Assembly (NCBI RefSeq): GCF_006345805.1
Contig: NW_021833384.1
Location: 1-27,266, forward strand
DNA length: 27,266 bases
DNA from: Octopus sinensis
Taxonomy: Eukaryota
Reading direction: 5' to 3'
The position numbers were made by a program, and so were the translations under genes. The notes beneath the pieces were generated by a model. The model was given only the letters and a program-made list of their open reading frames with translations. It was not told the origin of the DNA and made no database searches. Position 1 is the first letter of the stretch. The number at the start of each line of letters is the position of its first letter. Positions 2,229-26,097 of this stretch are shown piece by piece.

Positions 2229-2255
2229 TATATATATATATTATTTTATAGAAGG

Positions 2256-2306
2256 AGCTTCTACAGGACTAGAACTGTTTCATTCAGATGAAATCTTCAG
2301 GAAGCT
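2256..2306 (-). ncRNA. Type I hammerhead ribozyme motif (putative), mirror copy
   Basis: Exact reverse complement of 2338-2388 within the left palindrome arm. Confidence 0.7.
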
Positions 2307-2337
2307 GGCTGTCATACCAGAACTTATTTTGACAGCC

Positions 2338-2388
2338 AGCTTCCTGAAGATTTCATCTGAATGAAACAGTTCTAGTCCTGTAGAAGCT
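2338..2388 (+). ncRNA. Type I hammerhead ribozyme motif (putative)
   Basis: Stem I AGCTTC(2338-43)/GAAGCT(2383-88); core CTGAAGA (2344-50); stem II TTCA/TGAA with a U-U at its base; GAAA (2363-66); stem III CAG/CTG with loop TTCTAGTC; cleavage triplet GUA (cut predicted after 2382). Confidence 0.72.
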
Positions 2389-2470
2389 CCTTCTATAAAA
2401 TAAATTACTTTACTCTGCTATGTATTGAATACCTTATTTACTGTGGTTAACCCCGACTCAACCCGGGACC

Positions 2471-2526
<56 letters not shown>

Positions 2527-6763: not shown

Positions 6764-7546
6764 CTTTTTTTTCTTCTTTCAAATTTGCTTCCATTTCTTG
6801 CCGAGTGTCTTGTCGACTCCTAGGGCAAAGAAACTCATAGTATACATTGGTAGGCCATTAAACCAAACTCAATAGTTCGTTCATTTTTTAAATTTTTTTA
6901 GGTTAAATTAAAATACATGAGCAGCAACAGTTCTCACATCGACAATGCTCTTCTCAATACATGTGATGTACCAGTTAAGACAATCTTTTGCACTTCTTGC
7001 AGGGATGGTAAGCCAGGGATCATTCTCATATAATTTTCGGTTCCCTTCTTGATCATTCCTAGTGCTCCTACGATCACTGGTATTGTAACCGCCTTGAGAT
7101 GCCACATTTTCTCAATTTCAATGAGTAGGTCTTTATATTTTCTGAGCTTGTCAAACTCTTTCGCTGAGATATTATGATCACAGGGGATGCTCATGTCGAT
7201 CAATAAGCAAACTTTATTGTTTTGGTCTTTCACAACAATATCTGGTTTATTGGCCTTGATGGTTCGGTCTGTATGTACTGGAAAGTCCCACAGAATGGTT
7301 ACATTTTCTCCTTCAGTTACAGCCTCAGGGTGGTGATTATACCACTTATCGGCAGTTTTGATATTGTAATGCCGACTTATTAGCCAGTGGAGATATTGGC
7401 CAACTCTGTCATGTCTTAATTTATACTCCACTGGTGCTAAGACTTTACATACAGAGATTAGGTGGTCCACTGTTTCAATCATGTCGTTGCAGAATCGGCA
7501 TTTTGGGTCTGCTCCATTTTTCATCACATTGGCCTGGTAGTTCCGG
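6764..7546 (-). mobile_element. 5'-truncated R4/Dong-like RLE non-LTR retrotransposon, family A copy 1
   Basis: Encodes CCHC knuckle and restriction-like endonuclease, followed by a ~170-bp 3' UTR; (TAA)n on both sides. Confidence 0.9.
6934..7546 (-). pseudogene. C-terminal fragment of non-LTR retrotransposon ORF (CCHC zinc knuckle + RLE endonuclease)
   Basis: CRFC...ETVDHLISVC, RHD, ILWDFPVHTDR, KPDIVV...LIDMSIP...KLRKYKDL, PVIVGALG. Frame is open from the truncation point to the stop at 6934; no RT domain. Confidence 0.92.
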
Positions 7547-7615
<69 letters not shown>

Positions 7616-8131
7616 GTTCAGTAGTATATTTTTTATATCGTGCTTTCACTTCACTACCGAGCGCAGCTCTGTGTGCCTTGGGTATGTGCTGTGATTTGTT
7701 GTGATGCTCTGATGGTTATTGTATGGAAAGTGTTCTGCGTAGGATGTGTGCAGTGCCTAGTAGTGCAATTTTCTGTATGTTATATGTGTTTGTAAGTCCT
7801 GGTGTTTTTGGTATGTATTTGTCTGAATATATTTTTATCATGCCTAATGCACCTACTATGATAGGAATGGTTTCTGTTTTTAGGTCCCACATTCTGGTTA
7901 CCTCTATTTCCAGGTCTTTGTATTTTGAAAGTTTCTCCATTTCTTTTAGAGACACGTTGTCATCTGCCGGTATTGATACATCAATTAGAAAGCATTTTTT
8001 TCCTTCATGATCTCTGACAACTATATCTGGGCTGTTGGCCTTAATTTCTCTATCCGTGTGTATCGGCATATCCCAGAGTATGGTTGCTTTCTCGTTTTCT
8101 GTGACCTTTTCTGGTGTGTGCCTATACCATC

Positions 8132-8134
<3 letters not shown>
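7616..8134 (-). mobile_element. 5'-truncated R4/Dong-like element, family B (RLE fragment 7716-8134)
   Basis: WYRHTPEKVTENEKATILWDMPIHTDREIKANSPDIVV...LIDVSIP...KLSKYKDL...PIIVGALG; 3' UTR differs from family A. The N-terminal poly-Asn of the listed ORF is just the flanking array. Confidence 0.9.
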
Positions 8135-8178
<44 letters not shown>

Positions 8179-8179
<1 letters not shown>

Positions 8180-8601
8180 TTTTTTTTTCTTCTTTCAAAT
8201 TTGCTTCCATTTCTTGCCGAGTGTCTTCCCGACTCCCAGGGTAAAGAAACTCATAGTATACATTGGTAGGCCATTAAACCAAACTCAATAGTTCGTTCAT
8301 TTAAAAAAAAAAAATTTATATTTTATTTTTAATTTAAATTAAAATACATGAGCAGCAACGGTTCTCACATCGACAATGCTCTTCTCAATACGTGTGATGT
8401 ACCAGTTAAGACAATCTTTTGCACTTCTTGCAGGGATGGTAAGCCAGGGATCATTCTCATATAATTTTCGGTTCCCTTCTTGATCATTCCTAGTGCTCCT
8501 ACGATCACTGGTATTGTAACCGCCTTGAGATGCCACATTTTCTCAATTTCAATGAGTAGGTCTTTATATTTTCTGAGCTTGTCAAACTCTTTCGCTGAGA
8601 T
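8179..8601 (-). mobile_element. 5'-truncated R4/Dong-like element, family A copy 2
   Basis: The peptide ISAKEFDK...RRALSM (8365-8601) is identical to the end of copy 1, with the same 3' UTR. Confidence 0.92.
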
Positions 8602-18696: not shown

Positions 18697-19547
18697 TCTT
18701 TATATATAAAAAAAGTTGTGTGTCTGTCTACTCCGATTTAGATTCCTAATACTCCCACATTTGCGATGCAGTTTAACCAAAACCGAGTATCTTATAGTCG
18801 TGATTTATATCGAGCCCTTCTGGGTATTAGCGCGCGTCTACGATGAGTCTATACGATTTTACAAATAATTTACCATCATTTTTTCCCATTTTAATGCATT
18901 TTTTTAAAATTAAGGAGTAACTCTCAAACTTCACACCAATATGCGTGCTCATATGCGACGTAATATCACATCAGCAGCATTTCCTCACACCCTCATTGCA
19001 CTTGGCGAAGGCAAAATACCAGGGGATGAAAATGGTAATATTGCCATCGATTCCATTTGTACCATTGTTAAGACTAAGACGCCTTCTGATCTCAGAGATG
19101 CAGTGTTCCAAGATCTACAAGCTAATTATCAGAATATGGATTGGATTGGCAAAAAGGCTATACTGGCCCCAAGGAATAAAACTGTTCACCATATTAATGA
19201 TGAAATGCTAAAACTCATTCCTGGGGAAGTCTATGTATATCAGTCTATCGATACAACTCCTGACCTACCCAGAGACGTCATCAACTATCCAATAGAGGTA
19301 CTCAATTCCTTTGAGCACCCCGGACTACCACCACACATTCTCAAACTTAAAGTTGGTGCCCCTATAATGCTCATCAGAAATTTGGTTCCCCCAAAACAAT
19401 GCAATGGCACACGTTTGATCGTTAAGTCCTTATCTCCCAGCGTAAACTTATATCAATATTTGCCTGAATAATCATCATCATTCAGTGCAATCATTAACAG
19501 TACTTTCAAGTAATTCAGCCCCGAGCAACGCCGGGCAATTCTGCTAG
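18697..19547 (+). mobile_element. Internally deleted Helitron (H4) carrying a helicase fragment
   Basis: A|TC start, first ~220 bp homologous to H1, 3' hairpin CCCGAGCAACGCCGGG, then CTGCTAG|T at 19547. Confidence 0.92.
18929..19471 (+). pseudogene. PIF1-family (Helitron RepHel) helicase internal fragment
   Basis: Motifs LHTNMR, LGEG, KAILAPRN...IN, GLPPHILKLKVGAPIMLIRNL...CNGTRL. Lacks Walker A/B and the Rep domain; uninterrupted frame. Confidence 0.92.
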
Positions 19548-20240
19548 TATATATATAAACGGCAAAATGTCTGCGTGAGTGTCCTTTATACAAATCCACA
19601 ATTTTTCAGTTAGAGGGCTCGCACTTTCTATGGTCATTCAAAACCATCCAAGGGTGGTCGTGCACATCTTTACATTTCCCCAGTCACCCCGCAAATCTCT
19701 CTCTATATAAACGGCAAAATGTCTGCGTGGGTGTCCTTTATACAAATCCACAATTTTTCAGTTAGAGGGCTCGCACTTTCTATGGTCATTCAAAACCATC
19801 CAAGGGTGGTCGAGCACATCTTTACATTTCCCCAGTCACCCCGCAAAGCCATTAAAAATCAATAGAAGTGACTTTTTTTGTGAATTTTCTATCTAAAACC
19901 CAATCAAAATGCCCGGAACTTGATAACTAATATTACAGGCATCCCCCTCACACACACACTAAATAAACATAGACGCACATAGAGATATAAGCATGCGCAA
20001 ATGAAGACATACAATAGAAATACAAAATGGCTGACGGTTAGTAAGGAGAGACACAAGTAAGTGAGAAAAAAACAAAGGACCACTGATGCGGTCACAGGAG
20101 TGTGACGAAAGAACTTTGGCCGAAATAAGATTAAGATTAATGTAAAAAATAAATATCACTGAAGCAAAATAACACCAAATATATAGTGCGTGTGTTTTTA
20201 TTGGCTAAACTGGCAATATGACCATTCCGAAATATAACAA
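19548..20240 (+). mobile_element. Helitron-like element 5' region (H5) with tandem-duplicated 148-bp head (19548-19695, 19696 onward)
   Basis: The second copy begins A|TCTCTCTCTATATAAACGGCA, the same 5' tip as H6. Homologous sequence is inverted at ~25105-25314. Right boundary is uncertain. Confidence 0.68.
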
Positions 20241-21267: not shown

Positions 21268-21855
21268 GGCGCAGGAGAGTGGCTGTGTGGTAAGTAGCTT
21301 GCTAACCAACCACATGGTTCTGGGTTCAGTCCCACTGCGTGGCATATTGGGCAAGTGTCTTCTGCTATAGCCCCGGGCCGACCAATGCCTTGTGAGTGGA
21401 TTTGGTTGACGGAAACTGAAAGAAGCCCGTCGTATATATGTATATAGGAGTGGCTGTGTGGTAAGTAGCTTGCTAACCAACCACATGGTTCTGGGTTCAG
21501 TCCCACTGCGTGGCATCTTGGGCAAGTGTCTTCTGCTATAGCCCTGGGCTGACCAATGCCTTGTGAGTGGATTTGGTAGACGGAAACTGAAAGAAGCCCG
21601 TCGTATATATGTATATATATATATGTGTGTGTGTATGTGTTTGTGTGTCTGTGTTTGTTCCCCTAGCATTGCTTGACAACCGATGCTGGTGTGTTTACGT
21701 CCCCGTCACTTAGCGGTTTGGCAAAAGAGAGACCGATAGAATAAGAACTGGGCTTACAAAGAAGAATAAGTCCCAGGGTCGATTTGCTCGACTAAAGGCG
21801 GTGCTCCAGCATGGCCGCAGTCAAATGACTGAAACAAGTAAAAGAGTAAAAGAGT
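21268..21855 (+). mobile_element. tRNA-derived SINE with tandemly duplicated head (second head from 21446)
   Basis: Two near-identical A-box/B-box heads (TGGCTGTGTGG ... GGTTCAGTCC) and one tail; possible TSD GTCATA (21262-67 / 21854-59). Confidence 0.9.
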
Positions 21856-22279
21856 CATATTTCAAATAAATAAATAAATAAATAAATAAAATGAATAAAT
21901 AAAAAAATAAATAAATAAACGAGGCGTGGTAGGGGGGAAAAACTCTAAAAACAGAATTGGAATTAATTCGCAGAACGTTAGTTTTTAGAAAATGATAATT
22001 TCATGTCCGGTGAAAAGAATAATATTCTGTGTAACTTTATTAACGCGGATATACAGTAGAAAGACAGGAAACTGCAGGATTCGTCTCGAGAAAGTATTTC
22101 GTATAGACGTGTACTGTTGGTAGAGTACAAAGTCATAGCAGAAGCGGGCGAAAAGTGTCTAGTAGGGGCGGTGGAATTGCTAAACCCAGGTTTCTGCTTG
22201 TTTGGATTTAGCACGTCCACTTCCTTTGCTGGATGCTTTACGTCTGATAATGAAACACGTCTATGCTTTTTAGCAAACA

Positions 22280-22667
22280 CTAGCAGTATCGCCCGGCGTT
22301 GCTCAGGTTTGTAAGTGAAATAACTATAAAGCATTTTTAGAGAGTTATAGTAAAAAAAATAGCAAAAAAATGGAAAAAAAAATGATGGTAAATTTTTTTT
22401 TGAGAGTTAAAAAAGGTCGAGTTGCGTCCCCTAGACAGTCTGTGGTTTGTGTTTCTGATTCTCGATCCCATGTCGAATTTATCGATTTTTTTCAGAACTG
22501 GGGGAACTTTTCAAAATTTTCGATGCGTTAGTTCTGAATTATGACATTGGGCTATGTGTGTGTCAAGTTTCATCAGAATCGGTTGAAAGCCGTGGTCAGG
22601 GTGAGGGTACAACCAAACAGACACACAGAAACACACACAGACAAACTGCCGTTTATATAGAGAGAGA
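22280..22667 (-). mobile_element. Non-autonomous Helitron (H6)
   Basis: On the minus strand: A|TCTCTCTCTATATAAACGGCA ... CCTGAGCAACGCCGGGCGATACTGCTAG|T. Confidence 0.88.
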
Positions 22668-25104: not shown

Positions 25105-25314
25105 TATCAAGTTTCGGGCATTTTGATTGGATTTTGGATAGAAAATTCACAAAAAAGTCACTTCTATTGATTTTTTTTAATGGCTTTGCAGGGTGACTGT
25201 GGAAATGTAAAGATGTGCACGACCACCCTTGGACGGTTTTGAATGACCATAGAAAGTGCGAGCCCTCTAAGAGAAAAATTGTGGATTTGTATAAAGGACA
25301 CACTGACATTTTGC
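25105..25314 (-). mobile_element. Fragment of the H5 Helitron-like family
   Basis: The reverse complement aligns with ~19713-19925 (GCAAAATGTC...AGAGGGCTCGCACTTTCTATGGTCATTCAAAACC...CAAAATGCCCG). May extend further left. Confidence 0.8.
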
Positions 25315-26097
25315 ACAAGGGGCTAAACAAAGAGAGGACAAACAAGGACAGACAAACGGATTAAGTCGATTATATTGACCCTAGTGCGTAACTGGTACTT
25401 ATTTAATCGACCCTGAAAAGATGAAAGGCAAAGTCGACCTCGGCGAAATTTGAACTCAGAACATAGCGGCAGACGAAATACCTGTTTTTTTACTACCCAA
25501 CAAGGGGCTAAACACAGAGAAGACAAACAAGGACAGACAAACGGATTAAGTCGATTATATTGATCCCAGTGCGTAACTGGTACTTATTTAATCGACCTTG
25601 AAAGGATGAAAGGCATTTTTAACCTCGGCGGAATTTAAACTCAGAACGTAACGGCAGACGAAATACCTGTTTCTTTACTACCCACAAGGAGCTAAACGAA
25701 ATACCTATTTCTTTACTACCCGCAAGGAGCTAAACACAGAGATGACAAACAAGGACAGGCAAACGGATTAAGTCGATTATATTGACCCTAGTGCGTAACT
25801 GGTACTTATTTAATCGACCCTGAAAGGATGAAAGGCAAAATCGACCTCGGCGGAATTTGAACTCAGAACGTAACGGCAGACGAAATACCTGTTTCTTTAC
25901 TACCCACAAGGGGCTAAACACAGAGAGGACAAACAAGGACAGACAAACGGATTAAGTCGATTATATTGACCCTAGTGCGTAACTGGTACTTATTTAATCG
26001 ACCCCGAAAGGATGAAAGGCAAAGTCGACCTCGGCGGAATTTAAACTCAGAACGTAACAGCAGATGAAAACACTGCTAAGCATTTCGCTCGGCGAGC
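25314..26097 (-). mobile_element. Tandem array of four ~184-bp SINE-derived units
   Basis: CAAGG(G/A)GCTAAAC at 25316, 25501, 25685/25723, 25907. Each unit has a B-box-like GAGTT(C/T)AAATT(C/T)C on the minus strand; only the rightmost retains further head sequence. Confidence 0.88.

Follow-up and report, generated by a model that had tools for sequence, protein, structure and literature searches.

The small Octopus sinensis contig NW_021833384.1, all 27,266 nt of which were analysed here and are called the window, contains a perfect palindrome whose arms each look like a hammerhead ribozyme, one on either strand. An earlier note had seen in it a self-silencing ribozyme and a potential Dicer/ADAR substrate. 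The locus raises the question of whether such an inverted pair is a regulated device in its own right or a by-product of the way in which some mobile element inserts.

The palindrome and its surroundings

The two arms (2241-2314 and 2330-2403) were recovered exactly as first described: 74 nt each and 100% complementary across a 15-nt spacer (2315-2329), which is the element's own upstream sequence. The feature had originally been drawn from 2241 to 2403; the arms were right, but a 70-nt tail of the same insertion (2404-2473) was omitted, and the complete stump of a Penelope-like element (PLE), lying inside a (TA)n run, is 233 bp long (2241-2473). After (TA)6 comes the inverted arm, which meets the direct copy (from 2315) with 1 nt of microhomology; the 70-nt tail and (AT)n follow. 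The parts are:

2229..2240, no strand: (TA)6, what remains of the target microsatellite on the left side of the insertion, after the end of another high-copy repeat (from the sequence)
2241..2314, minus strand: inverted arm, untailed, which runs from 8 nt upstream of stem I to the first 3' end site (copy L149)
2256..2306, minus strand: type I hammerhead motif, predicted cut between 2262 and 2261
2315..2329, plus strand: hairpin loop, upstream sequence of the element present in the direct arm only, with 1-nt microhomology at the junction
2315, plus strand: last base of the family's TATA-like box
2330..2403, plus strand: direct arm (pseudo-LTR end), identical to 40/40 scored genomic candidates
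2338..2388, plus strand: type I hammerhead motif, direct copy, predicted cut after A2382
2338, plus strand: A at which the 5' ends of sibling copies pile up, the inferred transcription start
2370-2377, plus strand: loop III with a CUAG palindrome
2404..2473, plus strand: 70-nt tail with which the element's 5' UTR begins, reaching to the second 3' end site
2474..2520, no strand: (AT)n target microsatellite, right of the insertion

The flanks outside the arms have no mirror symmetry, and the junction at 2314/2315 occurs a single time in the assembly. A genome search for an empty allele returned the window itself only, so that the (TA)n run is a putative target site. Among the listed contig pieces of four sequencing runs none spans 2314/2315, which carries no weight either way.

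The remainder of the window is rich in repeats. At 2100-2228, 445-578 and 22279-22401 the end of another high-copy repeat is followed by (TA)n, and both the window stump and the L034 insertion were placed in the TA tail of that repeat. Positions 2544-2612 match a ~107-bp tandem repeat that is dense on contigs C27 and C29, and there are tandem duplications of 150-185 bp SINE-like units at 21277-21617, 25314-26069 and 19552-19847. Two ORF fragments on the minus strand (6934-7617 and 7716-8273) resemble the restriction-like endonuclease end of non-LTR retrotransposons. An ORF fragment at 18914-19471 resembles a Helitron/PIF1 helicase. No host gene was seen in the 27-kb window, its long ORFs being simple repeats or transposon fragments.

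The hammerhead motif and its predicted folding

All the parts that had been named for the hammerhead are present. In the direct arm, stem I (2338-2343/2383-2388) encloses CUGAAGA (2344-2350), a U-U (2351/2362) that closes a 3-bp stem II, GAA (2363-2365), a 4-bp stem III (2366-2369/2378-2381) whose loop has 8 nt, and the GUA triplet, with a predicted cut after A2382. The motif thus has the CUGANGA and GAAA core, the NUH triplet and the three stems in type I order, and a type I descriptor gives exactly two matches in the window, namely the two arms. The Rfam hammerhead models, proposed in the earlier note as a check, gave no match at E<=5 in the window, nor at E<=10 in 2316-2430.

The isolated arm folds no better than its shuffles (z 0.01), and the active monomer, at -6.7 kcal/mol, lies 3 kcal/mol above the minimum free energy (MFE) of -9.8, with a probability of 0.001. 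For two copies, the predicted dimer MFE (-27.6 kcal/mol) is an intermolecular stem I/III arrangement, owing to the CUAG palindrome in loop III, and the fully active dimer is at -23.4; both active forms are above their MFEs because stem II is weak. A recurring T-to-A variant of loop III (L068, L128, L188 and others) lengthens the palindrome from 4 to 6 nt and has a predicted dimer MFE of -30.0. In the subfamily of the window copy, an alternative 5-bp hairpin at 2352-2365 absorbs the GAA core in the dimer MFE, and by these fold predictions the variant in the window may work less well as a ribozyme than those of sibling copies. For metazoan PLE hammerheads in general, poor cleavage or a need for protein has been described (PMC4209133; PMC11167929).

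The copies conserve core and stems, as had been anticipated. Among 65 copies read without gaps, subfamily-level changes within the 51-nt motif occur only at N7 and in three loop II columns (two further columns exceed the 8% line, through misaligned rows), as compared with 11 variable columns of 22 in the region directly upstream. The stems, being invariant within the family, show no covariation there; the tail is conserved too. The short-loop relatives in the genome, 18 matches, are mostly deletion variants of the family or motifs without stem I, and hence provide no within-genome covariation either.

Outside the family, metagenome loci encoding related proteins have a descriptor match in sense orientation in 55 of 78 and in antisense in 2, compared with 0.2 matches per replicate in the control (78 loci shuffled). 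In 33 distinct motifs of these related elements there are 3-5 pair types per stem I position and several in stem III, a variety to be read with the fact that the descriptor itself demanded pairing. In the octopus genome itself, flanks of scanned loci also contain two or more further hammerhead-like motifs, unrelated in sequence, that are likely to come from other PLE families there.

The arm belongs to a Hydra-clade Penelope-like element

The arm has 693 genomic candidates, all 40 of those scored being identical to it, and a 24-place core pattern has 5,653 matches in the genome and none in a reversed control. It lies 3' of an ORF: longer copies have, upstream of the arm, an ORF and a 3' UTR rich in simple repeats. 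The open frames, of 520-675 residues, contain DKT and the aspartates of the reverse transcriptase (RT), in the form YRDD, as well as a CxCx5C linker and an endonuclease domain whose conserved E and N are flanked by CxxC and CxH; the N-terminus has an RWR motif that is RWK-like. RT and, at the C-terminus, a GIY-YIG-type domain are found in one ORF, linked to the hammerhead end, in L094, L063 and L066, which bears out the suggestion of a Penelope-like type I hammerhead; L094 is flanked by a tailed direct arm and, in inverted orientation, an arm with no tail. In L012 and L161 the tail, with which the 5' UTR begins, leads on into the ORF, and the hammerhead of this family lies ~130 nt before the start codon. 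Tail ends run into a TA/CA-type repeat or AT-rich sequence in 127 of 130 cases.

Pfam gave no RT and no GIY-YIG match for the ORF, and the Pfam and PDB searches returned nothing relevant. Of 8,000 proteins scored in a homologue search, 802 reached E<=1e-20, those listed being for the most part ~40% identical and nameless, and the Atlas neighbours (0.95-0.99) carry HTH_animal, RVT_1 (40-78%) and GIY-YIG (26-31%). Judging from motifs read by eye, the arm is the pseudo-LTR of an endonuclease-positive Penelope-like retrotransposon of the Hydra clade; the clade is known and the family, distinguished by eye from Hydra-1_Obim, is new. A second, diverged Hydra-type element with stops lies at L097:580-2993 (minus strand); its RT and endonuclease are separated by a long run rich in asparagine, comparable with the N-rich inserts known from rotifer Penelopes.

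With respect to the Hydra clade as published (Craig et al. 2021, PMC8557442), which includes Hydra-1_Obim, the family has in common the RWK-like motif (RWR here), DKT, CxCx5C, CxxC/CxH around E and N and no CCHH, along with the (TA)n target, a type I hammerhead in the pseudo-LTR, the inverted 5'-truncated copy and the one-sided tail. Its stem III ends and cut triplet are those of Penelope-1_NV, Penelope-1_SK and Hydra-1_aMil (PMC8557442). However, its N-terminus and hammerhead differ by eye from those of Hydra-1_Obim, its tail is 70 nt as against the 30-40 bp described for the clade, and the long simple-repeat tract in its 3' UTR is a further difference (PMC8557442). Domain III is 16 nt long here, whereas it measures 6-10 nt in 30/30 related families.

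Other PLEs offer additional parallels. A hammerhead on each strand is recorded for Penelope-13_HM (PMC8557442 supplement), and opposite-strand PLE hammerhead pairs have been noted at 100-700 bp (PMC4209133). The minimal and dimeric hammerheads that Cervera and de la Pena (2014, PMC4209133) described from metazoan PLEs share with ours the type I motif in the pseudo-LTR and a palindromic loop III predicted to favour dimers, but the 4-bp stem III here can, by prediction, also close as a monomer, and U-U replaces G10.1-C11.1, as it does in 14/30 related families. The non-LTR retrozymes (bioRxiv 10.64898/2026.07.22.740005) are likewise non-coding, with a type I hammerhead and a kinship to PLE pseudo-LTRs; they are head-to-tail tandem arrays, whereas the window has a head-to-head pair. 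Since its junction is unique in the genome, the window palindrome has not spread as a unit, and an identity with these tandemly spreading units was rejected.

Head-to-head pairs are common in the family

Inverted terminal duplication, the PLE habit that the earlier note had mentioned, is indeed frequent: 31 of 66 sampled loci are head-to-head, 16 of them with core gaps <=17 nt, in a sample that was not chosen for inversion (the first 100 matches listed out of 5,653, every one of them on contig C1). Public short-read contigs from two runs contain many more of the family's fold-back junctions. The junctions differ between loci, and many of them pass through the ribozyme.

The tail is nearly always one-sided. 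Among 51 distinct head-to-head loci, including the window, one arm is tailed in 50, neither in 1 and both in none (many were chosen for having a tail, which depletes the 'neither' class only), while independent tails would put at least a third of the loci in the 'both' class. The one call of two tails, at L101, was a false positive on inspection. Either arm, tailed or untailed, can reach further upstream. In arm pairs the loop II type is common to both arms in 15/15 and all four diagnostic sites in 9/15, the sharing of four sites expected for random pairs being 0.19; the templates thus came from one source, two free RNAs and a single tandem RNA or locus being equally likely.

Two special geometries were also observed. 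Four loci are exact AGCT-centred palindromes of 45+45-4 geometry. In 8/30 loci (L223, L225, L229, L232, L234, L238, L241 and L242) a full inverted hammerhead is followed by a tailed arm that starts at the predicted cut, the two being joined through the 6-nt stem I homology; these could be products of cleaved RNA or later deletions between direct repeats.

Where the copies and the RNA start

For 78 arms, from loci picked only by sequence at or after the cut, 30 ends fall 36-45 nt upstream of the cut and just 1 at 46-55. Exactly 45, the first base of stem I, accounts for 12/78, a class inflated by the AGCT-centred palindromes, which give both arms the score 45. Nearly all copies have a TATA-like box (TATAAAT, or CATAAAT/AATAAAT) 22 nt before stem I, with a spacer of variable sequence, and the 5' ends pile up at a distance of 29 nt from a TATA box. 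Related families have TATAWW starting 27-40 nt before stem I in 10/30, compared with 0-5 in six other intervals (the interval was picked post hoc, and one of the 10 matches is a TA run).

A start at the ribozyme cut, considered as a possible rule, was rejected, only 1/78 arms having it. The GUA before the cut is kept in 3,443 matches and differs at the -3 or -1 base in 41 and 42 (changes at -2 were left out of this tally). Of 30 + 30 altered matches inspected, about half are junctions near the cut, the others being point changes or small indels, and hence ~1% of copies start at the predicted cut. From these sequence counts we infer that the templates were mostly uncut RNA.

In subfamilies that naturally have T before +1, there are 603 arms with G or C at that position. 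G is found in 81 of the first 100 of these matches, and none of 30 inspected arms continues into the natural upstream sequence. With respect to the origin of the G in 23 inspected cases, the partner arm cannot explain 8, can supply it in 12 and is ambiguous in 3; a C was unexplained by the partner arm in 1/7. Among 100 listed rows, adjacent pairs have G on both arms in 7 (one probably a duplicate), are mixed in 2 and have C/C in none; at L257/L258 the G precedes +1 on one arm only. In full-length L1 insertions an extra G marks copying to the cap (PMC11702581), and in Penelope and Chlamys-3 transcription is known to start within the pseudo-LTR. The hammerhead is thus likely to be the very start of the element's capped RNA. 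Our search of the literature found no statement of a hammerhead beginning a capped RNA, nor of cap-derived G at PLE junctions, although subscription papers and supplements could hold one.

Origin of the palindrome

We consider it very probable that the palindrome consists of a pair of short copies, placed head-to-head in (TA)n, of the PLE end that bears the hammerhead; it is likely the dead-end product of one insertion. The GIY-YIG endonuclease would cut both strands of the TA run. Primed by each cut end, reverse transcription would copy sense RNA of the element that had not been cleaved, beginning at the end of the tail (2473) in one case and at the A-rich site (2403) in the other; each cDNA would end at the 5' end of the RNA or short of it, and the two would then be joined by microhomology. 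The one-sided tail, the extension of either arm and the shared type fit two such priming events at internal start sites. Most short palindromes would likely be copies of capped RNA starting at the hammerhead. The window arms run 23 and 8 nt beyond the putative RNA start, and are therefore likely to derive from the downstream pseudo-LTR of a longer transcript.

Much of this scheme has precedents. Penelope insertions with an inverted copy, a tail at one side only and (TA)n as target are in print (PMC8557442, PMC3846280), and extension of both strands from two internal start sites on uncut RNA has been obtained in vitro (PMC11167929). That last system, Poseidon of Anolis (PAc; Frangieh et al. 2024), has in common with ours two internal RT start sites that define the tail and an AT-rich target, as well as cutting and extension of both strands with uncut RNA as main template, as proposed here; it belongs to another clade, and its hammerhead overlaps the start codon, as opposed to the ~130 nt found here (PMC11167929). 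Parts 1-2 of 4 of that paper contain no analysis of head-to-head junctions or of cap-derived G.

The same element could also have made the mirror arm through self-priming (a snap-back) with a single template, which may have been antisense RNA, the proposal made for rotifer Penelopes (PMC3846280), or through trimming of longer palindromes after insertion. The recurrence of exact AGCT-centred palindromes (the 4 loci of 45+45-4 geometry) and a subfamily type nearly always common to both arms would suit a snap-back, and the 8/30 loci joined at the stem I homology look as a deletion between short direct repeats would. We nevertheless think this unlikely: the untailed arm often has upstream sequence missing from the tailed one, and vice versa, a pattern not expected of one cDNA simply snapping back; the G before +1 on both arms in 7 pairs, with 2 mixed and no C/C, is what copying to the cap would leave; and trimming provides no reason for a hard edge at +1. 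An assembly artefact, in the form of a fold-back read, has to be considered here, the window being the whole of a small unplaced contig and the arms 100% identical. Yet its flanks are unmirrored beyond the arms, its one-sided tail is that of 49 other loci and the short-read contigs of two public runs hold those many other fold-back junctions, which makes this explanation the most improbable of all.

Is the hairpin a regulated device?

There remains the self-silencing, Dicer- or ADAR-regulated hairpin that the earlier note had favoured. Its geometry was well reasoned: whichever strand is read, the antisense arm precedes the sense one, and the full hairpin (-134.5 kcal/mol, predicted) far outweighs the ribozyme fold (-6.7). 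The 183-nt palindrome region has an MFE of -135.2 kcal/mol (z -22), and 0/200 shuffles are as stable. If the locus were transcribed, a read-through transcript would thus be predicted to form a hairpin that blocks both ribozymes. The arms, moreover, contain 22 and 24 adenosines, Penelope RNA is heavily edited in a lizard and the octopus dsRNA fraction is high (PMC5625713).

A functional device that is transcribed here is nonetheless very doubtful. The palindrome is one of many insertion products whose junctions vary by locus, many of them cutting through the ribozyme; its own junction is unique, no host gene was seen in the window and there is no sign of selection at the locus. Moreover, its direct copy opens with the last base of the TATA-like box; having thus lost that box, the copy is likely to be silent except under read-through. 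Of the listed sequencing runs that contain the sequence, none is on record as RNA. An A>G difference at 2429 in runs guessed to be RNA, considered as RNA editing, is also present in DNA runs and was rejected as a private base of the window copy.

Editing would be expected to strike essential core adenosines, and a ribozyme would therefore more likely be killed than freed by it. A contribution of the family as a whole to edited dsRNA is plausible, but passive only. If about 60% of cores genome-wide are in head-to-head pairs (extrapolated from 62/100), the family could contribute ~1,700 inverted repeats to the potential dsRNA pool of the host. On such family-level edited dsRNA, what we saw of the literature holds nothing specific beyond PMC5625713.

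What the family may reveal

Taken singly, the window palindrome is of little import, the insertion debris of a known class of retrotransposon. The thousands of young copies of its family, on the other hand, record where the RNA starts and how the arms are joined. A bolder reading, which we put forward tentatively and as rather less probable than not, is that the Hydra-clade hammerhead is the first 51 nt of a capped mRNA, so that its cleavage would decap the RNA and act as an off switch, and that the palindromes would be two sense RNAs copied to their caps while held as a loop III hammerhead dimer. Were this true, only capped, uncut RNA would be translated and copied, and both the role of PLE hammerheads and the formation of inverted ends would be accounted for, against the proposal of antisense self-priming. 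Both the role of these hammerheads and the origin of the inverted ends are called unresolved in the literature available to us; the extra G, the TATA spacing and the one-sided tail make both questions testable.
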